Origin: Shigella phage JK16
Length of the DNA: 51,854 nt
Reading direction: 5' to 3' (one strand)
Sequence record: MK962751
Shown piece by piece: positions 1,550-12,504 of the stretch. Each line of letters opens with the position of its first letter. Positions within the stretch are counted from its first letter, which is position 1. The translations under genes and the position numbers were made by a program. The notes under the pieces were generated by a model that saw nothing but the letters and a program-made list of their open reading frames with translations, searched no databases and had not been told where the DNA came from.

Positions 1550-3547
1550 ATGATTCCAAATATCGAAAAACAAATATCAGCATTAGGCGAGGCAGTAATA
1601 AAAAGCATCCAAGAGCGATTCACGGTTGGCAATATAGTGCCTTATCCTTATCAGTGCGTTGCGTATGCAGAGATCGCAAAGCGCATGAAAAACTATGAGC
1701 ATCCTTTCTTTGTTAAGGCTTCTGTATCGGCTGGCAAAACATTGATGTTTGCGATGGTTGCGGCGCAATGCCGCAAAATGGGATTGAAAATGATGGTCCT
1801 TGCTCGCCAGGCTGAAATTGTTGATCAGGATTCGGAAGAGATCAGCAATCTTGGCGTGCCAAACTCAATCTATTGCGCCGGACTGAAAACAAAAAGCGCA
1901 TACTTTCCGATCGTAGTCGGTTCTGAGGGCACTGTAGTAAACGGATTGTTTAAGTCGTTAGGTGATTATGTTCCGCACGTTATCGGTATTGATGAATGTC
2001 ACCAGGTGGATTGGGAGGATCTCGCGGACGCGATAGAAAATAATGAATCTTACCAGCAGATGACCACTAAGAAGGATTTGCCAGTACTGATTGGAGAAGA
2101 ACAGCAATTTGATTCCAATGGCGATCCAATGTTCGGAACAGGGCGCACACAGTACACCGTAATAATCATGGAAATGATGCGCAGGTGTCGCGAGGCATAC
2201 GGGCACGAATTGCGAATATTCGGCATGACTGGATCTGAGTTTCGCGGCGTGGTTCCAATACTGGTTGAAGATAAGAACAAAAAGGGATTCTGGCGTGAGC
2301 AAGTAACTAACATAGACACAAACTACTTAATCAAATTCGGTTCGGTAGTGCCAACAAATTTCGGCGACGTCGGCGACCTGGGGTATGACCTTTCAGAGTT
2401 CGAGGCCAGTAGCGAGGACGGCGTTTCAGACTTTGACGCTAAAACATTGCGCAAGATGGAAGAAAAGATCCATCAAGACGCAACAATGACACAGAAAATC
2501 ATGGCTAAAGTCCATGAGATATGCAAAGACAGGAACGGAGTTTTAGTTACATGCGCAGGGGAAAGGCACTGCAAGGAGGCCGCCGCCGCACTGCCGCCAG
2601 GCGTTGAATACAGGATCATAACTGGCAAGACTGGAGATAATCAGCGTAAAGAGTGGCTGAGGGAGGCATACGAGGGAAAAGTAAAATACATCTTCCAGGT
2701 ACAGGCGCTTACCACTGGCGTTAACGTTCCGTTTTGGGATACTTCGGTAATACTGAGAAAGATAGGATCTCTAACATTGCTTATCCAGCTTTTGGGGCGC
2801 GGCATGCGACTGCTTAAGCAATGGCACATTGAACAGGGATTCAAGAAAAAAGATCATCTTGTATTGGATTTTGCAGGTACTATGGATGAGTTAGGTGATT
2901 TGTATTTCGATCCAATCCTTGAGCAAGCGCAATTCCAAAAGAGATTTACAAACGGGAAAGAGCCTAAGACTTGTCCGATATGTGGAACGCTAAACAGCTT
3001 TTACGCTCGCCGATGTATGCACGTAGACGATAACGGGAAGCGATGTGAGCATTTTTGGACTTACAGAATTTGCGAGGACCAGGTAGATCCGAGAACGAAA
3101 AAGATAATCAAGCGCGGTTGTGGAACAAAAAACGACGTAGTGGCGAGAGTATGCCGTTGTTGCGATATTTCTCTTGTCGATCCTAACGAGAAGTTAAGCG
3201 GTAAGCACTACACCAAAAACGATTGGTGCAACGTTAAATCTTTCCGCGTTGATATGACGAAAAACCAGAAAGGAATTATTTTTTGCTATGAGCTTGAGGC
3301 CAACGGCGATACGTTCAAGGCATACGAAAGATTTTTCCCTGAGTCAGAAAGCAACATTTGCCGGACGATATGGAGAAAAATAGCATTGCAGCACATACCG
3401 GATCGCAAGATTGCTGGTATGGTGGCGAGCTATAGAAATGCTCGTAAAATAATGTCATACGCTCATCACATCATGCCGCCTGTACGCGTAACGCATCGCA
3501 AAAACGGCAAAGGTGAGGATAACATTGCAAAACGGGAGTTTGTTTAA
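1550..3547 (+). CDS. ATP-dependent DNA helicase (superfamily 2) with C-terminal Cys-rich zinc-ribbon region
   Basis: Walker A SAGKT, DExH-like IDECHQ, C-terminal CPICG...C...C clusters. Confidence 0.7.
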   Translation: MIPNIEKQISALGEAVIKSIQERFTVGNIVPYPYQCVAYAEIAKRMKNYEHPFFVKASVSAGKTLMFAMVAAQCRKMGLKMMVLARQAEIVDQDSEEISNLGVPNSIYCAGLKTKSAYFPIVVGSEGTVVNGLFKSLGDYVPHVIGIDECHQVDWEDLADAIENNESYQQMTTKKDLPVLIGEEQQFDSNGDPMFGTGRTQYTVIIMEMMRRCREAYGHELRIFGMTGSEFRGVVPILVEDKNKKGFWREQVTNIDTNYLIKFGSVVPTNFGDVGDLGYDLSEFEASSEDGVSDFDAKTLRKMEEKIHQDATMTQKIMAKVHEICKDRNGVLVTCAGERHCKEAAAALPPGVEYRIITGKTGDNQRKEWLREAYEGKVKYIFQVQALTTGVNVPFWDTSVILRKIGSLTLLIQLLGRGMRLLKQWHIEQGFKKKDHLVLDFAGTMDELGDLYFDPILEQAQFQKRFTNGKEPKTCPICGTLNSFYARRCMHVDDNGKRCEHFWTYRICEDQVDPRTKKIIKRGCGTKNDVVARVCRCCDISLVDPNEKLSGKHYTKNDWCNVKSFRVDMTKNQKGIIFCYELEANGDTFKAYERFFPESESNICRTIWRKIALQHIPDRKIAGMVASYRNARKIMSYAHHIMPPVRVTHRKNGKGEDNIAKREFV

Positions 3548-3966
3548 TGGCTATAACTGATAAAGGAGATTATCTTGAGTTTTACGAAAGAGATCCAACC
3601 GACACGAGAAAGGAAGTTAATCACCAGATAGATAGCTTTCAGTGGTTGACTTATGCTCATCCTTATTTGCTAGCTTGGCATACGGTAAACGAGAATGAGA
3701 AGTCGAAAGTAACGGCGATGATTGATCAGCAGTCCGGCTTGGTTAAGGGGGTAAGCGATTTCATCATCCTGATTGGTTCAAACGGAAAATACCCCTTTGC
3801 AGCGATTGAGATCAAACGAGTGAATAAATCAGGCAAGGGGAAAGCATCACCAGTCAGCGATGAACAAAAGGCTTTTTTGCGTCGCGTTCGCAGCTTAGGA
3901 GGATTCGCTGCGGTCGCCTACGGATTTAATCAGTTTAAGTTAGCTATTGAATACATGCTTAAATAG
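3547..3966 (+). CDS. VRR-NUC domain nuclease
   Basis: GVSDFIIL...AAIEIKR...Q pattern typical of VRR-NUC (PD-(D/E)XK) fold; start overlaps helicase stop. Confidence 0.6.
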   Translation: MAITDKGDYLEFYERDPTDTRKEVNHQIDSFQWLTYAHPYLLAWHTVNENEKSKVTAMIDQQSGLVKGVSDFIILIGSNGKYPFAAIEIKRVNKSGKGKASPVSDEQKAFLRRVRSLGGFAAVAYGFNQFKLAIEYMLK

Positions 3967-4006: not shown

Positions 4007-4046
4007 TCAATAACACGAGATGGCTTTTAATAGCGGAGAAATGAAA

Positions 4047-4772
4047 ATGGCTAAAGATATTTTAGATAAAGACACCCATGACGCATTTGTTAGCTTTGAG
4101 CAGTTGGAGAGAGAAACGTTTATAGGAAATGCTCTTGCAACTGGAGGCCATTACCAGGCAGTAAAGCCAAATCAATATTATAAGGTAAGCGGCAACCGAT
4201 ACGCTGGAAGCACTACGCCGGACGTTGTGCGCGATATGTGGAGCACACCTCAAGAGATCGTGGAGTGGATGGAATCAGAATTTGGCGAATACGATCTCGA
4301 CGCGGCAGCAAGCCAGGAAAACGCAGTTTGCGAGAAGTTCTATAGCAAGGAAACAAACTGCTTAAAGCGTTGGTGGGGTAGCAACAAGCACGTATGGCTT
4401 AACCCGCCGTACAGCAACCCAACTCCATTTATCAAGAAAGCAATTGAGCAAATGGAGCACAACAACCAAATTGATGTTTTGTTGCCATCCGACAACTCTA
4501 CAGCATGGTTTTATGAGGCGCAGAAAAACGCGGCTGAAATCATCTGGATCACTGGCGAGGTTTACGAAGAGGGGGGAGTGGAATATTCCCGCACCGGAAG
4601 AATCGCCTTTGTGTCTGGATTGACTGGCGAGCCTGTACAGGGCAACAATAAGGGAAGCGTGATTTTTGTCATGCGCAAACTTAAAGAAGGCGAGGAGCAG
4701 AAAACGCGATACGTTAAGATCAGCGATATTTGCCCCTCTGTAACCGAACGCCGCGCGCGCAAACGGAGCTAA
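4047..4772 (+). CDS. dam: DNA N6-adenine methyltransferase (phage Dam family)
   Basis: DLDAAAS ... WLNPPYS catalytic motif (NPPY); start chosen 8 nt after GGAG. Confidence 0.8.
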   Translation: MAKDILDKDTHDAFVSFEQLERETFIGNALATGGHYQAVKPNQYYKVSGNRYAGSTTPDVVRDMWSTPQEIVEWMESEFGEYDLDAAASQENAVCEKFYSKETNCLKRWWGSNKHVWLNPPYSNPTPFIKKAIEQMEHNNQIDVLLPSDNSTAWFYEAQKNAAEIIWITGEVYEEGGVEYSRTGRIAFVSGLTGEPVQGNNKGSVIFVMRKLKEGEEQKTRYVKISDICPSVTERRARKRS

Positions 4773-4776
4773 CACG

Positions 4777-5034
4777 ATGAAAAAAGAGAGAAGCGTTTAT
4801 TTAAATGAAACTGGCGAGTGGTTGTTATTTCGCGCTATGGTGTGCGATGCACTTGATAAAAACCCTAACGTGAAAAAGATGATTGATTGCGATCCGTGGG
4901 AATTTTCAAGCGCATTAGATATGAGCTTTGATGAGACAAGAAAACTCCCTCTTGAAAAATGGCACGAACAAATCAGAAATGATATGCAAGAGTTTGTAGA
5001 TTCGTGGAATTTTCAGAACGGAATGATCCACTAA
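4777..5034 (+). CDS. hypothetical protein
   Basis: ORF directly after dam, ends in conserved motif (TAA TAG). Confidence 0.45.
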   Translation: MKKERSVYLNETGEWLLFRAMVCDALDKNPNVKKMIDCDPWEFSSALDMSFDETRKLPLEKWHEQIRNDMQEFVDSWNFQNGMIH

Positions 5035-5077
5035 TAGCACTTTTTGTTAAAACGCCCGGCATTTTGTCGGGCATAAT
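5035..5077 (+). promoter_or_regulatory. motif-class promoter (motif, hairpin GCCCG..CGGGC, CATAAT)
   Basis: Same architecture as other copies. Confidence 0.45.
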
Positions 5078-5103
5078 TATTTCATCGAAACGAACGTGAG
5101 GAA

Positions 5104-5289
5104 ATGAAAATGGTAGTATATAGCAAGAAAGCATTTGACAAGGCGCAACAAGCCGCACGCGAGGCGGTAAAAGGTGGAACGAAAAACAATATGCAGCTTG
5201 ATTGGGGCGCTGCAATGATTCTACTTCGCGTTGCATATGGTCACTACCCATTAGAATTTGCGGAGGCATATTATAAGCATGAAGATTGA
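5104..5289 (+). CDS. hypothetical protein
   Basis: ORF with GAGGAA RBS. Confidence 0.4.
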   Translation: MKMVVYSKKAFDKAQQAAREAVKGGTKNNMQLDWGAAMILLRVAYGHYPLEFAEAYYKHED

Positions 5290-5521
5290 ACAAGGTAGAG
5301 AGGCGGTATGGAATCACGCTAAAGAATGCGGAATAGCCGACGATATAAAGAAGATCGCGCAATACTTTGATATTGCAGATGTGAGCATAATTAGCGGCGA
5401 TAAGATGACTTTCCTCAAGGAAAGGCCGCGAAAAATGGTAAGAGTTCCAGCAGTTCCAACAAAAATTGATTTCAAAGAGGCAATGGCTAAAATCCGAGAG
5501 CCTCGCAAATATTATAAATGA
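5279..5521 (+). CDS. hypothetical protein
   Basis: ORF overlapping upstream stop; start MKIEQG. Confidence 0.4.
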   Translation: MKIEQGREAVWNHAKECGIADDIKKIAQYFDIADVSIISGDKMTFLKERPRKMVRVPAVPTKIDFKEAMAKIREPRKYYK

Positions 5522-5615
5522 GGATAGTTATCATGTGGCGCTTGTTTGTTCTACCGTTACCCGTTATCATCGCTGTTACAGTTATGTACCATATAGTGAT
5601 GAGATAGGTGGCAGA

Positions 5616-6731
5616 ATGAAAAATGTAAAAATTACAGATGAGCAATTCAAGATCGAACGGGCGGCGGGTAAGACATATAAACAGATCGCTCAAGAGTACG
5701 GAATGAATGTGAGAAGCGTCGAGCGTCGCGCGGCGCGACTTGCAAAGCAAGGCCAGGTATCCACCATTGGAGCGCCTTGTTTTGGCGTTCATGGTGAGTC
5801 AGTAATGACTGACAAAGAAGGCAACATAATCCTAAAGTGGACTAAAACCAGCAAGGATAAAGAGCAATTAGAAGCATTAATGCGCGCAGCAATGGAGGCA
5901 TTTAGCGAGGAAGTGCCGCGATTAGATCCGGTTCCATTACAGGAGCGTGACTATAACGAAACGCTTTCCTTGTATCCGATCTTTGACATGCACTTAGGAG
6001 CTATGGCCCATAAGCACGAATGCGGCGAAAATTGGGATACTGCCACGGCAGAGCGCGTTATGAATAACTTTATCGACTATGCTTTAATGTGCGCACCGGA
6101 TAGCGAAAAGGCTGTCATCCTGATTGGTGGCGATATGCTGCATAGCGACGGCCTGGAGGCGGTTACACCTGCAAGCGGTCACGTACTGGATCAAGATAGT
6201 CGATATGCAAAATTGGTTTACGTTGCCATCCGTGCAATGCGACGCGCAATCAATAAAATGTTGTTAAAGCATAAACATGTTGAAGTCCAGATCGTAGAGG
6301 GCAATCATGACCAATCAGGAATGATTTGGCTACGCGCAGCAATGGCGGCAGCATATGAAAACGAGCCGCGCGTTTACGTTGATGTTTCCCCTCGCGTTGT
6401 GCACCACACGCAATACGGAAAAACTTTCCTTGCGTACCATCACGGGCACACAGTGCGTAAACCGGAGGCTTTGCTAATGATGTGCGCGTCAGATTGGCGG
6501 GAGGACTTCGGAAACTCAAAAACGATGTATGCGCACGTAGGGCACTGGCATCACCAGACCGTGACAGAAACGTCGCTTGGCATCGTTGAGGTGCATAGCA
6601 CCCTGGCGGCAAAAGACGCATACGCCGCGCGAGGTGGCTGGAGATCTCGACGCCGTGCGGCGGTTATCATTTACGACAAAGAGCATGGAGAGGTGGGGCG
6701 ATTTGTTCACTATCCAGAAATGATGAATTGA
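5616..6731 (+). CDS. calcineurin-like metallophosphoesterase with N-terminal HTH-like segment
   Basis: Motifs DMHLG, GGDMLHSDG, EGNHD, HHGH, GHWHH; AGGTGG RBS; N-terminal ...NVRSVERRAARL... Confidence 0.6.
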   Translation: MKNVKITDEQFKIERAAGKTYKQIAQEYGMNVRSVERRAARLAKQGQVSTIGAPCFGVHGESVMTDKEGNIILKWTKTSKDKEQLEALMRAAMEAFSEEVPRLDPVPLQERDYNETLSLYPIFDMHLGAMAHKHECGENWDTATAERVMNNFIDYALMCAPDSEKAVILIGGDMLHSDGLEAVTPASGHVLDQDSRYAKLVYVAIRAMRRAINKMLLKHKHVEVQIVEGNHDQSGMIWLRAAMAAAYENEPRVYVDVSPRVVHHTQYGKTFLAYHHGHTVRKPEALLMMCASDWREDFGNSKTMYAHVGHWHHQTVTETSLGIVEVHSTLAAKDAYAARGGWRSRRRAAVIIYDKEHGEVGRFVHYPEMMN

Positions 6732-6775
6732 TGAATTTTTATTTAAATCAATGACAAATTAAATCAAAAACTTGC

Positions 6776-6808
6776 AAGGGGGCGGCGTTTGTCGCCTCTT
6801 TTTTTTGT
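6776..6808 (+). terminator. rho-independent terminator after phosphoesterase gene
   Basis: GC-rich stem with G-U pairs followed by T8. Confidence 0.5.
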
Positions 6809-6876
6809 TTAATTTTTTACCATGTACGTTTATCATGCGGTCAATATATTGACTTTAATTAATATGGAGAATAAAA

Positions 6877-7092
6877 ATGAAAGATTTTATTAACGCAGCT
6901 ACCGCCGGATCTGGCGGTTCATCTATCGCAAGCGCCGCTACAGGGCAGTTAACCATTGCTATTGCCAGCTTTGTTTTAATGGCTGCATTCGGTGCATGGG
7001 GCGCTTACCTTCGCTGGCGTGATAGTAAAAAATTCCACGAGGCGATCGAAAAAGGTGATATTCAAAAAGCTATTGAAATCAGGGGCAAGTAA
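6877..7092 (+). CDS. holin
   Basis: 71 aa, single hydrophobic helix with charged C-terminus, immediately upstream of endolysin. Confidence 0.55.
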
Positions 7093-7583
7093 TGAGCATA
7101 AAGAACAAGGTAGCGGCTGCGGCCTTTGGCGTTGCGGTTGCCTTGACTTCTCCACTTCTTGAAGAGATCGAAGGGGTAAGATACAAGCCATACAAAGATA
7201 TTGCTGGAGTATGGACGGTTTGCGCAGGAATCACCGGACCAGATGTTATCCTGGGGAAAACGTACACTAAAAAAGAGTGTGATGCTTTGTTGGCTAAGCA
7301 TATCCAGGTTGCTAAAAAGGAAGTTGACAAGCAAGTTAAGGTTGACATTCCTGATAGTATGCGTGCAGCAATGTACTCATTCACTTACAATGCAGGTGTG
7401 GGAGCTTTCAGAAATTCAACAATGCTGAAACTCATAAACCAGGGGAAATTAAACGAGGCTTGCGATCAGCTTTATCGTTGGACTTATTACCATAACCAAA
7501 AAACAGGAAAGCGCGAGAAGTCTAAAGGCTTACTTAACAGGCGCAAGGTCGAATACAAATATTGCACAATGGATCTGAAATGA
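7092..7583 (+). CDS. SAR endolysin, GH24 lysozyme
   Basis: N-terminal Ala/Gly-rich weakly hydrophobic signal-anchor-release segment then E..D..T catalytic triad pattern ([26 protein letters not shown]). Confidence 0.8.
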
Positions 7584-7975
7584 TGAAGAATTTTTTACTT
7601 ACACCAATCGCAATGGCGGTGATCTTGTCTGGATGTTCAAGCGTTACGCCACTGACCGGATTAATCGGCAGTAAGCCGGAAATCACAGCACAGGCTGGAG
7701 CGGAGAACGTGAAGCAGACAGTTGGCATTACAGCAAAGCAGGACGCCAGCACAAAACAGGAAACCACAATAAAGGAATCTGCGGTTGACAAGGTGGACAC
7801 GTCCAGCAAGAAGGATTTCACAACATCAACCATTCAGGCCAATACCATCAAGGCAGACAAAATTCAGGTCGTGCAGGGTAATAACGGCAGATGGTACGAT
7901 CCGGTAATCATATGCGTGGTTGTGTTAATTGTGCTGATTTGTCTTTACTGGAGAGAAAAGAAAAAGGAGGCTTAA
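7580..7975 (+). CDS. unimolecular spanin (T1 gp11-like)
   Basis: N-terminal lipoprotein signal with lipobox LSGC and C-terminal transmembrane helix ([16 protein letters not shown]); start overlaps endolysin stop. Confidence 0.7.
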
Positions 7976-7992
7976 TGCCTCCTTTATTTTTA
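7963..7992 (+). terminator. rho-independent terminator after lysis cassette
   Basis: Stem AAGGAGGC/GCCTCCTT followed by TATTTTTAT; stem overlaps spanin stop. Confidence 0.6.
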
Positions 7993-8214
7993 TGCGTCGG
8001 GCCACATATGAGTTTCGTTTGTTGGCTTGTTCGATTCGTCGTACTGCCTTACTTCAATGCTGCAAGTGTCGCCGTACATTTCTGCAATCTTGCGCTCATT
8101 TTCAAACGCCGATTGCTCACTCCAGCCTGAATCCTTATCGTAAACTGTCGGGATTTCAGAAGAAGATCCATTTGCATGATTGTATACGCGAACTACTAAA
8201 AACTTGCTGGACAT
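7990..8214 (-). CDS. hypothetical protein
   Basis: Minus ORF with AAGGA RBS. Confidence 0.4.
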   Translation of the reverse strand: MSSKFLVVRVYNHANGSSSEIPTVYDKDSGWSEQSAFENERKIAEMYGDTCSIEVRQYDESNKPTNETHMWPDA

Positions 8215-8251
8215 GATTTTTCCTTTTTGGTTGGTTCGTTTCGATGAAACA

Positions 8252-8294
8252 AATATACCCGACACAATGTCGGGAGTTTTAACAAAAAATGCTA
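8252..8294 (-). promoter_or_regulatory. motif-class promoter, minus strand (TAGCATTTTTTGTTAAAAC, hairpin, TATATT)
   Basis: Motif variant plus -10-like hexamer 18 nt downstream on minus strand. Confidence 0.4.
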
Positions 8295-8486
8295 TTCCAT
8301 ACGCTTTACTGTAACCAATAACACACCATCATCATTGCATAAAACGTGTTCATTGGTGCTAAAAGCGCGCATATCTGAATAAAGCAGCGTAAGTAACGCA
8401 TGAATAAGATCCTCATGTGATATTGAATTTACGGCGCAGTGCTTCAAGATCTTGTCTATTAGCTTTTGCCTGGAACAATTCATCAT
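8292..8486 (-). CDS. hypothetical protein
   Basis: ORF whose stop lies in motif copy; overlaps neighbour, start uncertain. Confidence 0.3.
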   Translation of the reverse strand: MMNCSRQKLIDKILKHCAVNSISHEDLIHALLTLLYSDMRAFSTNEHVLCNDDGVLLVTVKRME

Positions 8487-8808
8487 CGCCCATCTCCCCT
8501 ATTCTAGCCATATCCCTGATCCAGTCGTTGCGCATACCATCCAGGCTATACAATTCGAATCCGAAAGGCCGCTTTGACGATCCTTTGGACCAGTATTTTC
8601 CGCAGACTCCATCTATATAACCAGCCGTCATCATTCTTGCGCAAAATTCCTTAGATGCAAGGCTGGCGAACATTCGCGGCGTAAGTCCGGCGGCCCGTGC
8701 GAGCCGCTCACATTCTCTATGCTGATAGATAAATTTGGCTATGTGCTGCCTGTTAAACCAATCGTATGACTCACACCATTTATACAGATCAAGCAAAAAC
8801 ATAATCAT
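8413..8808 (-). CDS. hypothetical protein
   Basis: 131 aa ORF, start overlaps stop of upstream gene. Confidence 0.45.
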   Translation of the reverse strand: MIMFLLDLYKWCESYDWFNRQHIAKFIYQHRECERLARAAGLTPRMFASLASKEFCARMMTAGYIDGVCGKYWSKGSSKRPFGFELYSLDGMRNDWIRDMARIGEMGDDELFQAKANRQDLEALRRKFNIT

Positions 8809-10385
8809 CCCAGCAGTATTGGATTGACAAAAATAACACCATTAATCACACAAACATAATTTCTTTCTTCCAGCATTGGCAGTAAGTGCCCTTCTATCCT
8901 TTTCATTACGCCAGCCTGACCAACGAAAGGTTTTACCTTTCTCGCTGATTCGTACAGGGCGCGGATATTCAGAATACCTTTATTAGCCTTGCCGTGCCTC
9001 GTGATCAATTCAATCAATTTACCCATTTCAGCATCATCACCAGCATAACCAGAAGCATTGGCGGCGCTAATGTATGTTTTGCTCAATTCCTGAAACATGA
9101 TCAACGCCTCTTGCATTGTTTCCACGTCGATCTCTTTCGACTTCTGCGGGTATCCGGCAGGATTAAACCAGTTACGGATAACATGCAGGACGGAAGCAAG
9201 CCTGATCACCTGTTTATCCATTTTACCCAGCGCACCGCGTAACATTGTATGAGAATACTTTCCTCCGTCTGCAAGATGCGGTTCCATATCCTGGCGAGCA
9301 ATGTTGAGCACTCGCATAGCTGAACGGCTTATTTTCAGCGATATATTTGATTCGCTCATGATGTTATGCACCAATTGATAATATTGGGCTTTCAATTCAG
9401 AATCCACCGCCTCATAGGTAGAATCACCATTTTCATCAATGAATGAGCGACGGCCTAAGAATGATTCCTCTCGGACCAACAAAAAACGCTCACTAACACC
9501 GATGCCTCGCGATCCAGCGTCCATGATTCCGCTTATCGTTTCATCCTGGGCTATGACGCTCATACATCCAAGCGCGCGAAAACTCATATTATTGTCAGCA
9601 TTAGCACGGGCAATTGATACGTGACCATTATCCCACGCCTTAAGCACTAACTCACTGTTAGTCTTCCTTTCGCTATTTGCATAGGTCAAGCCTAACAGAC
9701 TGTTAATACTTGTTGCTTCATCAGATATTACGGCAAAGTTACCTTGCTTGTTGTTGATTTTCGCCAAGCCTTCTGGAGTTGTATCTGAAACAGGAAAAGT
9801 TATATCACACATTTTTTCCAGCTTTTCCTCCAGATCCTCTTTTTCCTGGTATAGAGATTCCATATCAGCGCCGGATCTTTCGCTTTTCATCTCCTTTGCA
9901 AGACCTGCCAGCTTTGCCTGTATTTTCTTTCTTTCCTTGCGGCGTTGCTCGTTGATCTTCTCAACTTCCGCAATCATCGGAGCAATAGCCATGCTGTTGA
10001 TCGCAGATTTACCAGTTGACGGCGGCTGGCTTGTAACGACGTAAAGCGCAGTCGGCTGATCGGTTCCGTGATAGTCAACCGTAAAGCGTCCAAGCATAGC
10101 GGCAGAAATGCAGCCGATAAAGTGCATGTAAGCCGATGATTCAGGGAATTGAACGGATCGCGCAATGCTGCGTGATAACTTGCCGACAACATCAATATCA
10201 TTACCAAGAGAAATAACGGGGTAGCGATCGTGACCGCTATTCACATCCTTTACGTCGCCCCAAAAGCTGGACGACTGGCGATAGCCGTTAGCCTGAATTG
10301 ATACGCGAACTGGCGAAAGGTTCTGGCTTTCAGCCATAGCGATTATTTGTTGTGGAGTTAATTTGTTCGTTTCTAATGAAAACAT
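8805..10385 (-). CDS. DUF3987-like P-loop protein
   Basis: PPSTGKS P-loop-like segment and overall similarity to YfjI/DUF3987-type proteins; AAGGAG RBS. Confidence 0.5.
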   Translation of the reverse strand: MFSLETNKLTPQQIIAMAESQNLSPVRVSIQANGYRQSSSFWGDVKDVNSGHDRYPVISLGNDIDVVGKLSRSIARSVQFPESSAYMHFIGCISAAMLGRFTVDYHGTDQPTALYVVTSQPPSTGKSAINSMAIAPMIAEVEKINEQRRKERKKIQAKLAGLAKEMKSERSGADMESLYQEKEDLEEKLEKMCDITFPVSDTTPEGLAKINNKQGNFAVISDEATSINSLLGLTYANSERKTNSELVLKAWDNGHVSIARANADNNMSFRALGCMSVIAQDETISGIMDAGSRGIGVSERFLLVREESFLGRRSFIDENGDSTYEAVDSELKAQYYQLVHNIMSESNISLKISRSAMRVLNIARQDMEPHLADGGKYSHTMLRGALGKMDKQVIRLASVLHVIRNWFNPAGYPQKSKEIDVETMQEALIMFQELSKTYISAANASGYAGDDAEMGKLIELITRHGKANKGILNIRALYESARKVKPFVGQAGVMKRIEGHLLPMLEERNYVCVINGVIFVNPILLG

Positions 10386-10437
10386 TCGTTAGCTTCTCCT
10401 TTGTGGGCCGTAAATTTTAACGGCCCAATACTACCCC

Positions 10438-10456
10438 GTTTTGTCAAAAAGTGCTA
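10438..10456 (-). promoter_or_regulatory. motif copy (TTGACA variant) followed by hairpin GGGCCGT..ACGGCCC, upstream of DUF3987 gene
   Basis: Motif variant TAGCACTTTTTGACAAAAC; no clear -10 at standard spacing. Confidence 0.35.
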
Positions 10457-10729
10457 TTTGATCCGCTCTATTGCAACCAGAAGTCGATCAGGCTGGCGGT
10501 CGCTGTAGCATTCTCCTGTAATCCCATCCTTAAACGTAAAGTAAAGCGCCTTATGATATGAAAAACCAATCAGCCAACCTACCGCCGTTTTTTTGATGGG
10601 CCTGACTATATCGCCAGGCTTGAAGGTTTTTGTTGCTGAATGAGTCACCTTATAGCGATATTCAGCCTTGATCATAAGGCTTCTCGCTTCCGTGGTTTTT
10701 GTGGAATCCGTACTTTTTCCAAATGGCAT
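10454..10729 (-). CDS. hypothetical protein
   Basis: ORF ending in motif TAG; may start at internal Met. Confidence 0.35.
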   Translation of the reverse strand: MPFGKSTDSTKTTEARSLMIKAEYRYKVTHSATKTFKPGDIVRPIKKTAVGWLIGFSYHKALYFTFKDGITGECYSDRQPDRLLVAIERIK

Positions 10730-11183
10730 CTCTTGATGCTACAGCGCTATCAATTGATGCATGATAACCACCAGAAATACACCTGCCATCAACAGTTACT
10801 TGTACGCACCATTTAGACACCCTCTTATTCCACATCACGCCAGTATAACCAGATTTATTTGTCGATCTCCTTGTGTGGTTTTGTGAGTTTTGTTTTCTTG
10901 TGACAAGCCGGAGGTTTTCGATTCTATTGTCATCTCTTATGTGATTCACGTGATCTATCTCCATTCCTTTTGGTATTGTTTTTCCATGCATCCACCAAAC
11001 AATCCAATGCGCCGGATACTCTCTGCCACCAATACCTATACGTCTATATCCGTTTTTAGTTATATAACCTGCCTCATCGCCAATTTTTGCCCGTCTTCCT
11101 GATGGGCTTTTCCATAATAGACGACCATTTTCATATATAAATAAATTTAGAAGTACTTGCCTTGAAATTCCGCTATTGCACAT
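10662..11183 (-). CDS. HNH homing endonuclease with AP2 DNA-binding domain
   Basis: HNH motif IDHVNHIRDDNRIENLRLVTRKQN; AP2-like SGYTGVMWNKRVSKWCVQV...; N-terminal NUMOD-like YENGRLLW. Confidence 0.75.
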   Translation of the reverse strand: MCNSGISRQVLLNLFIYENGRLLWKSPSGRRAKIGDEAGYITKNGYRRIGIGGREYPAHWIVWWMHGKTIPKGMEIDHVNHIRDDNRIENLRLVTRKQNSQNHTRRSTNKSGYTGVMWNKRVSKWCVQVTVDGRCISGGYHASIDSAVASRDAIWKKYGFHKNHGSEKPYDQG

Positions 11184-11374
11184 TTAAATCCCACCTCGCA
11201 TCTTTCAAGAGTCCATTGCTCACCTTGAGCATCAACAACGTAACCAGCTACAGCGCCTAAAACCCTTCCCATAATTATCTCATAGCGTTTCCCTTCCTTA
11301 AAATGCTGACCTGGCTTTACGCTGTTCATGTGGTGGTAAACTTTTGAGCATTTTATTGTTCTCTTCTTTGCCAT
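11147..11374 (-). CDS. hypothetical protein
   Basis: 75 aa ORF. Confidence 0.4.
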   Translation of the reverse strand: MAKKRTIKCSKVYHHMNSVKPGQHFKEGKRYEIIMGRVLGAVAGYVVDAQGEQWTLERCEVGFKCAIAEFQGKYF

Positions 11375-11404
11375 CGTTTATTTCTCCTTTCGTTTCGGTG
11401 AAGT

Positions 11405-11448
11405 GATTATGCCAGGTTTTTACACCTGGCTTTTAACAAAAAGTGCTA
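11405..11448 (-). promoter_or_regulatory. motif-class promoter, minus strand (motif, hairpin CCAGGTG..ACCTGG, ATAATC)
   Basis: -10-like hexamer 19 nt downstream of motif. Confidence 0.45.
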
Positions 11449-12156
11449 TTTTGAGTTTGACTCAAATACGGCGCGAGCAAATCCGCGCGGAGTGAGGGAG
11501 CGGATCATCTTTGTGCGTGATGAATTGCCGCCAGTTTTGGCCCAGCCTGGATTATCTTTGTCTTTCTCTTTCGGCAGGATTAAAGCGCGTGGAGGAATAA
11601 CAAAGCCGTTGCCAGTCCAGAGGCATGTTTTCTTAAAGTAGCGATCCCGCGCCGGAATAATATCAGGGAAGTCGGGATGTTTATCATCTTCCGGCAGATA
11701 GCCAGCGTAATCGCACGGATGGAACGTATAATCAGGCTTACGCCATAACGTTGACAACTTGCCAACCGGATTTTCGATCATGTAAGGAACACCGAAATAA
11801 TCAGCTATATCAGCCGCGATTCTGCAAGTGTCGGCGGCCTCATCCTGGAACGATGGATTCTCAAGGCGTTTTTTGGCCCAATGGCGAGATCCGCTATTTG
11901 CAAGGTCGGTGCAAGGAGGGAACGCCATAATAAAATCAGGATTGCCCCACTCATTATTGATTGCCTTAACATAAAAAGCATCATCAATCCAGACGTTAAC
12001 GTATTCGATATTCTCATGCTGTATGCGCACTGACTGGTAATCACCGTGATCGCCGCCGTCAGCATTAAAGCAAATGCACTTATATCCATTATCAGCCCAA
12101 TCTTTAACGGCTTTACCAGATCCATCAAATAGGGAGAATATTAAACCTTTATACAT
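11446..12156 (-). CDS. DNA cytosine-5 methyltransferase-like protein (short, no obvious target-recognition domain)
   Basis: Motif I-like FSLFDGSGK, motif IV-like FPPCTDLANSG (PCT rather than PCQ), motif VI-like MIENPVG, C-terminal RSLTPRGFARAVF. Confidence 0.5.
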   Translation of the reverse strand: MYKGLIFSLFDGSGKAVKDWADNGYKCICFNADGGDHGDYQSVRIQHENIEYVNVWIDDAFYVKAINNEWGNPDFIMAFPPCTDLANSGSRHWAKKRLENPSFQDEAADTCRIAADIADYFGVPYMIENPVGKLSTLWRKPDYTFHPCDYAGYLPEDDKHPDFPDIIPARDRYFKKTCLWTGNGFVIPPRALILPKEKDKDNPGWAKTGGNSSRTKMIRSLTPRGFARAVFESNSK

Positions 12157-12166
12157 CGTCATTACC

Positions 12167-12391
12167 TCAAAACGGAAAACAGCGCGGACAACCAGGATCG
12201 AAATCGCATCCACAATCATTAACAATCATAGTGGGATCTGCAAATATTGCGCTTGATTCAAGATCCATATCCATATCACCTAAAGCCTCATCAAGACTCT
12301 TAATTTTATATGCCACTTCAAGCGCCGCCTCTTTATTTAGTCCGGCATCTTCTGCCATTTGAAGGCGCTCAAAAAATCCTTCTTGACTCAT
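12167..12391 (-). CDS. hypothetical acidic protein
   Basis: 74 aa ORF. Confidence 0.4.
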   Translation of the reverse strand: MSQEGFFERLQMAEDAGLNKEAALEVAYKIKSLDEALGDMDMDLESSAIFADPTMIVNDCGCDFDPGCPRCFPF

Positions 12392-12504
12392 CGCATAATC
12401 CCCTTAATAACAGCCAAGATAATAGCCAGGCCAGCAGCAGTAACCAAAAAGCCAACCGCGCCAATAATCGAATAAAAAAAGAAATCAATAGCCTTATCTA
12501 TCAT
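12388..12504 (-). CDS. putative 38 aa membrane peptide
   Basis: Found by manual translation; GAGGTGG RBS; hydrophobic; stop overlaps next start (ATGA). Confidence 0.25.
   Translation of the reverse strand: MIDKAIDFFFYSIIGAVGFLVTAAGLAIILAVIKGIMR

Follow-up and report, generated by a model that had tools for sequence, protein, structure and literature searches.

A T1-type Dam gene and a putative short cytosine-5 DNA methyltransferase gene in Shigella phage JK16

N6-adenine and C5-cytosine DNA methyltransferases are abundant in Drexlerviridae according to BASEL, and one short cytosine enzyme of these phages has been studied by experiment in phage K42, a KarlJaspers strain (Wang et al., bioRxiv 10.1101/2023.08.16.553469, published as Cell Rep 2024;43:114857; the details given here are from the preprint). 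The DNA analyzed here is the 51,854-nucleotide sequence of Shigella phage JK16 (sequence record MK962751), the whole of which is called the window below. It contains a gene assigned to the phage T1-type Dam family and, on the other strand, a gene for a short protein closely related to the K42 cytosine enzyme. The best explanation of both, with a joint probability of about 0.85, is that the genome carries two independent orphan DNA methyltransferase genes, one for a T1-type Dam and one for an active, minimal cytosine-5 enzyme.

For K42, the 711-bp dcm gene was lost or silenced in all four mutants that escaped retron Ec86, and this gene by itself was toxic only when retron Ec86 was present. Expression of dcm led to more 5-methylcytosine (5mC) in the retron's multicopy single-stranded DNA (msDNA), as determined by liquid chromatography-mass spectrometry. 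The C82A/E128A/K175A/K176A quadruple mutant was inactive and gave no rise in 5mC, and the four residues were named as active-site (catalytic or substrate-binding) residues (Wang et al.). Later papers take it as established that retron Eco1 is triggered by phage Dcm, and they name phage Dam as a trigger of retron Sen2.

The short protein of the window is 100% identical to a "putative DNA cytosine methyltransferase" of phage JLBYU16 and 99.2% identical to the "Dcm-like C5 cytosine methyltransferase" of BASEL phage FritzSarasin. With bas06_0055 of KarlJaspers (Bas06), which has the same annotation as the FritzSarasin protein, it shares 89% identity in a gapless alignment with 25 substitutions. 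The feature is thus already known, by annotation and by experiment on the 89%-identical relative. The fold, motifs, conservation, orthology and synteny described below come from the present analysis, and the writing of 5mC and the triggering of the retron come from that relative.

The short protein as a minimal cytosine-5 methyltransferase

The first-pass annotation had placed a protein of 236 residues on the minus strand, and this was borne out by an open reading frame (ORF) of 711 nucleotides whose ATG at 12156 is preceded, 8 nucleotides upstream, by GAGG (Table 1). Many GenBank and RefSeq records give a length of 257 amino acids (774 bp) instead, starting from an upstream ATG (12157-12225, minus strand) and overlapping the 74-amino-acid ORF that precedes the gene. 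On sequence grounds we favor the 236-residue form because of its ribosome-binding site, the N termini of the homologues and the BASEL annotation.

The short protein had the cytosine-5 methyltransferase fold, and its best fold matches were DNMT3A/B, CmoX and M.HhaI. Its motif I, FDGSG, aligned with SLFDGIATG of DNMT3A/B, and the spacing between the catalytic Cys and the Glu (E128) of motif VI was 46 residues, identical to that of DNMT3A. The block RDRYFKKTCLW lined up with RARYFWGN of DNMT3A in a permissive hhalign comparison, at low confidence. Motifs I, IV and VI of the first-pass annotation were all found in the translation, as FDGSG, PPCT and ENPV. Its motif X stood less firmly: the C-terminal block GGNS-x6-RSLTPRGFARA resembles motif X (GNS, and GRS in DNMT3A) and equally motif IX (RxLTPRExAR, and RKLHPRECAR in M.HhaI). 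Only this one block was found where separate motifs IX and X were looked for, and the profile-profile alignments of the C-terminal region were nonsignificant. The hhalign targets were E. coli Dcm, an alignment of the M.HhaI clade and DNMT3A, and all of them left the block unplaced; no protein in the M.HhaI homologue set was less than 71% identical to M.HhaI, and the set was too narrow for a useful profile.

Conservation was followed in a wide set of 74 diverse relatives, 33 to 57% identical to the window protein, and in a close set of 33 relatives. Six residues (C82, E128, P147, Y173, W180 and P188) were invariant throughout the wide set, and F79, P80, T83, G89, N129, P130, D171, K175, T177, R219, S220, P223 and G225 were at least 90% conserved, with K175 kept in 73 of the 74 proteins. 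The PCT motif, noted in the first pass as a noncanonical form of PCQ, is present. The threonine T83 is the norm of the family (67/74) and DNMT3A itself has PCN, so the third residue of the motif is not diagnostic.

The absence of an obvious target-recognition domain, also noted in the first pass, is confirmed by the length of the C-terminal part. The stretch beyond motif VIII has only 66 residues in the short enzyme, whereas DNMT3A has 122 and M.HhaI has 164. What is left is a catalytic core and little else, and a loop of 28 residues occupies the usual site of the target-recognition domain. The confidence of the structural model was reduced near this loop (predicted local distance difference test score of 63 for residues 201 to 210).

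The short methyltransferase is part of a large, widely annotated and partly characterized family. It matched phrog_757 ("DNA methyltransferase") with an E value of 1.4e-84 over residues 2 to 235, and its homologues numbered 3030 in protein clusters of 90% identity; none of the 120 matches listed among these had a Pfam domain. At 50% identity, the family was represented by 2077 proteins, mostly of 200 to 260 amino acids. It was present in 1497 of 50,697 phage records, whose carriers ranged from Drexlerviridae to Dhillonvirus, 43-kb Salmonella phages and 135- to 150-kb myoviruses. Within the family, the clade of enterobacterial phages has its own conserved segment, D36-H37-G38-x-Y40 ... H47 (12016-12051, minus strand). 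The fold of the short methyltransferase was also seen, at 24 to 28% identity, as one domain of the huge uncultured-phage proteins A0A6J5SE15 (1397 amino acids) and A0A6J5NPY6 (1126 amino acids) in BFVD, one of which is annotated with a helicase/UvrB N-terminal domain.

Several results weigh against the reading as an active, Dcm-like enzyme. The short protein gave nothing at an E value of 1 or below in Pfam (including PF00145) and NCBIfam searches, and PF00145 was found in only 5 of the 74 relatives, weakly (best E value, 0.0039). PDB sequence searches with phmmer and hmmsearch gave only E values of 0.1 to 0.6, to DNMT3B over motifs I to IV, and hhalign against E. coli Dcm gave a probability of 1.3%, with 27 columns aligned around the PC motif. 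Across all of the Pfam, NCBIfam, PDB and hhalign attempts, the best sequence link to canonical cytosine-5 methyltransferases had an E value of about 1e-4 and covered motifs I to IV. The acidic residue of motif II is replaced by Asn31 (12064-12066, minus strand) in the window protein and in 33 of the 33 close relatives, and the family does not keep the second Arg of motif VIII. The 25 substitutions, including N211 for K211, separate the window protein from the KarlJaspers relative, to which the activity data belong. In addition, restriction resistance in Drexlerviridae was not linked in any simple way to methyltransferase genes in BASEL. The CCWGG specificity of the K42 enzyme was assumed by analogy with host Dcm, and little 5mC was present in msDNA of dcm+ MG1655 when the phage gene was absent (Wang et al.), which argues for an action of the phage enzyme beyond that of host Dcm.

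The short length without a target-recognition domain, the lack of a Pfam match and the Asn at motif II would also fit a catalytically dead remnant that binds only DNA or SAM (S-adenosylmethionine), for example as a decoy or regulator. Such a remnant would not be expected to keep Cys82 and Glu128 invariant in 74 diverse relatives together with the ENP and PPC blocks. The motif II position is Asp in 70 of the 74 wider relatives, but the KarlJaspers-type protein, which like the window protein has N31, raised 5mC, and its active-site mutant did not. A dead remnant is therefore very improbable. Of the possibilities offered in the first pass, a nonmethylating DNA-binding derivative is unlikely because the KarlJaspers-type relative is reported to write 5mC, and a minimal methyltransferase is favored, with C82 and E128 invariant and the same relative active. 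A retargeted methyltransferase, the third possibility, would hinge on a recognition sequence that is so far only presumed.

Proposed activity, specificity and role

The short enzyme is predicted to be a SAM-dependent orphan cytosine-5 methyltransferase with a DNMT3-like catalytic core. The cofactor would be bound by FDGSG of motif I and by the C-terminal GGNS block. Cys82 would attack C6 of the flipped-out cytosine while Glu128 holds the base, and K175 and K176 may contact the DNA, as proposed by Wang et al. for the K42 enzyme. The enzyme would then probably introduce 5mC into phage DNA and into whatever host duplex DNA it encounters. The presumed benefit to the phage is protection against restriction enzymes that are blocked by cytosine methylation, whatever the dcm status of the host. 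The likely cost is that abortive infection by retron Ec86/Eco1 is switched on through the methylated, CCTGG-containing stem-loop of the msDNA, as was seen for the K42 enzyme.

Instead of duplex phage DNA, an active enzyme might naturally act on RNA, with tRNA as one candidate by analogy with DNMT2, or on DNA in single-stranded or hairpin form. Hairpin msDNA is the only substrate demonstrated for the relative, and the domain that would read a duplex sequence is absent. However, the target in msDNA is a double-stranded stem, and the best fold matches are all DNA enzymes. The occurrence of the family in phages of many lineages also fits a role on phage genomes. We consider a nonduplex substrate improbable and retain duplex DNA as the predicted substrate.

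Two orphan enzymes of the predicted kinds would act at GATC and, by presumption, at CCWGG. In the whole window, both sites were found at their expected frequency, with 308 GATC sites observed against 305 expected and 134 CCWGG sites against 127. Other palindromes were depleted, most of all CCSGG (4 observed, 22 expected) and RCCGGY (1 observed, 23 expected), and also GGCC (113 against 164), CTAG (36 against 69) and GGWCC (11 against 18). This pattern looks like restriction-site avoidance that spares GATC and CCWGG, the sites presumed to be methylated. The GATC and CCWGG counts are compatible with protection at both sites but are not proof of it, and they are not decisive on specificity.

The specificity of the short enzyme is put at CCWGG only presumptively. 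The msDNA mutants behind this assignment in K42 (CCTGG changed to AATGG, ACTGG or CATGG) also alter the stem that is contacted by the effector (Wang et al.). A tentative and rather doubtful alternative is that the family reads DNA unlike any characterized cytosine-5 methyltransferase, with a specificity shorter or more relaxed than CCWGG. The reading of DNA might in that case use the catalytic loop and dimerization, as in DNMT3.

Transfer of a group other than methyl was considered as well, since CmoX was among the fold matches and relatives have Lys at position 211. In CmoX, Arg350 replaces the motif X Asn304 of M.HhaI and contacts the carboxymethyl group (PMC12783734). In the short-enzyme family, residue 211 (11524-11526, minus strand) lies in the GG[N/K]S block, a candidate motif X, and is Lys in most members, including KarlJaspers and 29 of the 33 close relatives. 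E. coli produces carboxy-SAM, the donor that carboxymethyl transfer would require, and an enzyme of this type would resemble phage CmoX or the engineered M.MpeI N374K. The window protein, however, has the canonical Asn211, and the Lys211-type enzyme of KarlJaspers/K42 gave 5mC. DNMT3A has Arg in its GRS motif and yet uses SAM as its cofactor. Residue 211 is, moreover, only a candidate equivalent of the motif X Asn, and the annotation of the syntenic KarlJaspers genome has neither a CmoA nor a ligase gene. Carboxymethyl transfer is thus highly unlikely for the window protein. For the family, Asn or Lys at position 211 might tune the use of SAM versus carboxy-SAM, such that Lys-type members would write 5-carboxymethylcytosine in E. 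coli; this is less likely than a novel mode of reading DNA.

Dam, the genome and the neighboring genes

The Dam protein is, by its curated profile matches, a secure and ordinary member of the known T1-type family. It matched Pfam PF05869 over its full length (E value, 1.6e-61; 207.3 bits against a curated cutoff of 28.1), the NCBIfam equivalog TIGR01712, "phage N-6-adenine-methyltransferase" (E value, 2.1e-53; 180.2 bits against a cutoff of 97.05), and phrog_111 (E value, 1.5e-87). It shares 84% identity with the "Dam-like N6-adenine methyltransferase" of KarlJaspers. The Dam gene and its DLDAAA and NPPY motifs, as given in the first-pass annotation, agreed with the translation and with both profile families. 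An alternative ATG lies upstream at 4020, but the start at 4047 is more likely because GGAG is found 8 nucleotides upstream of it. As a member of this family, the enzyme most likely methylates adenine in GATC of replicating phage DNA.

The segment at 10400-12500 was 98% identical to Escherichia phage vB_Eco_mar001J1 (Drexlerviridae; Tempevirinae; Warwickvirus) and 97 to 98% identical to many further T1-like coliphages. Given this nucleotide identity, the 51.9-kb window appears to be an essentially complete genome of a T1-like phage (Drexlerviridae, Warwickvirus-like). The gene order around both methyltransferase genes agreed with that of the annotated KarlJaspers genome. Around the short gene it also agreed with that of JLBYU16, and in both comparisons the HNH cassette was the exception. 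Dam is followed, as in KarlJaspers, by small ORFs, a holin, a lysozyme (7092-7583) and a spanin. The DUF3987 gene lies downstream of the short methyltransferase gene on the same strand, and its synteny with this gene is conserved across Drexlerviridae.

The HNH homing endonuclease gene, described in the first pass as next to the short methyltransferase gene, is not its immediate neighbor; an ORF of 75 amino acids intervenes. Both genes are on the same strand and no more than about 260 bp apart, as might be expected of a functional pair, either resembling a restriction-modification system or forming a homing unit protected by methylation. However, the HNH segment occurred in only 4 of 137 matching records, and phages whose methyltransferase is 99 to 100% identical lack it. 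In comparison with JLBYU16, a segment of 718 bp (10665-11382) with the HNH gene and the 75-amino-acid ORF replaces 401 bp with a single ORF of 128 amino acids, between flanks that are 96 to 99% identical, and KarlJaspers too has a single 128-amino-acid ORF at this position. In addition, the K42 enzyme works when expressed alone. The HNH gene is a variable, mobile cassette and not a partner of the methyltransferase, and its proximity is without functional meaning; a functional pair is extremely unlikely, and the HNH gene was rejected as a partner.

Upstream of the short methyltransferase gene lies the ORF for the very acidic protein of 74 amino acids. It is labeled "putative cytosine DNA methylase" in JLBYU16, apparently wrongly. 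M.EcoHK31I is a precedent for a separate recognition or motif IX subunit, and the 74-amino-acid ORF was considered in this role. It was rejected, as its occurrence is limited to some 448 Drexlerviridae-type records compared with 1497 records of many lineages for the methyltransferase and as the K42 enzyme works alone. With its possible zinc knuckle, the acidic protein could be a DNA mimic or an antidefense protein.

Table 1. Features of the window, with positions numbered from its first nucleotide
Feature	Position	Strand	Remarks
SF2 helicase gene	1550-3547		Ahead of Dam, KarlJaspers-like order
VRR-NUC nuclease gene	3547-3966		Between SF2 helicase and Dam
Phage T1-type Dam N6-adenine DNA methyltransferase, 241 amino acids	4047-4772	+	PF05869, TIGR01712, phrog_111
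DLDAAA, cofactor-binding motif of Dam	4293-4310	+	Direct translation
NPPY, catalytic motif of Dam	4401-4412	+	Direct translation
DUF3987 helicase-like protein, 526 amino acids	8805-10385	-	PF13148, E value 1.7e-44; phrog_2373 "DNA helicase"
HNH endonuclease gene	10662-11183	-	PF13392, E value 7e-18
75-amino-acid ORF between HNH gene and methyltransferase gene	11147-11374	-	Matches only the C-terminal half of phrog_2684
Putative short "Dcm-like" cytosine-5 DNA methyltransferase, 711 nucleotides, 236 amino acids	11446-12156	-	PHROG 757
C-terminal conserved block GGNS-x6-RSLTPRGFARA, residues 209-229	11470-11532	-	R219, S220, P223, G225 and A229 at least 90% conserved
28-residue loop in place of the target-recognition domain, residues 181-208	11533-11616	-	Length comparison with M.HhaI and DNMT3A
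Motif VIII-like block RDRYFKKTCLW, residues 170-180	11617-11649	-	Y173 and W180 invariant; D171, K175 and T177 at least 90% conserved
Motif VI, ENPV, residues 128-131	11764-11775	-	E128 in 74/74, N129 in 70/74, P130 in 73/74
Motif IV, PPCT, residues 80-83, predicted catalytic Cys82	11908-11919	-	C82 in 74/74 diverse relatives
Motif I, FDGSG, residues 10-14, predicted cofactor-binding loop	12115-12129	-	Invariant in 33 close relatives
GAGG, putative ribosome-binding site of the short methyltransferase gene	12165-12168	-	From sequence; overlaps the TGA stop of the upstream 74-amino-acid ORF
74-amino-acid very acidic ORF, pI 4.05	12167-12391	-	Upstream of methyltransferase; ends in CGC-x5-C-x2-C (four-cysteine cluster)

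Comparison with known systems

As a discovery the finding is small; annotations of T1-like phages regularly include both enzymes, and a function has been published for a nearly identical short enzyme. The prediction for a phage with the short methyltransferase gene is that retron Ec86/Eco1 detects it and that Sen2-type retrons detect its Dam, which is relevant to host range and to phage selection for therapy. The remaining scientific interest lies in an enzyme of this size, so much shorter after motif VIII than DNMT3A or M.HhaI, and concerns its recognition sequence and how it reads DNA.

The Dam protein matches the profiles of phage T1 Dam (PF05869, TIGR01712) over its full length and has DLDAAA and NPPY in common with it, with no notable difference. 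The closest known system for the short enzyme is the KarlJaspers/K42 Dcm, which has the same length (236 amino acids, 711 bp) and has C82, E128, K175 and K176 at the same positions. In KarlJaspers the neighbors are also the same, with the DUF3987 helicase-like gene, small ORFs, the methyltransferase gene and the 74-amino-acid ORF. The two differ at residue 211, which is Asn here and Lys there, and in the HNH cassette, which is near the window gene and missing from KarlJaspers.

Among the cellular enzymes, the catalytic domain of DNMT3A and DNMT3B is alike in motif I (SLFDG...), in the PC[N/T]DL, ENV/ENP and (Y)FWGN/LWTGN blocks and in the Cys-to-Glu spacing. The identity, however, is only 15 to 19%, the tail after motif VIII is little more than half as long in the short enzyme (66 versus 122 residues), and motifs IX and X are not clearly separate. 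The short enzyme is, moreover, a bacteriophage protein without the regulatory domains of DNMT3. From the PF00145 enzymes E. coli Dcm and M.HhaI the short enzyme differs in that PF00145 is silent, the length is 236 amino acids compared with 472 (Dcm) and 327 (M.HhaI), and the target-recognition domain is missing. Where phages are annotated with "Dcm", the name describes a function and does not denote orthology. CmoX, the DNA cytosine C5-carboxymethyltransferase of Synechococcus phage S-B43 (PDB 8yf3; PMC12783734), has 333 to 372 amino acids and a full target-recognition region, and CmoA is encoded adjacent to it. At the position that may correspond to Arg350 of CmoX, the window protein has Asn, and its gene lies in a setting syntenic with that of KarlJaspers, where CmoA is not annotated.

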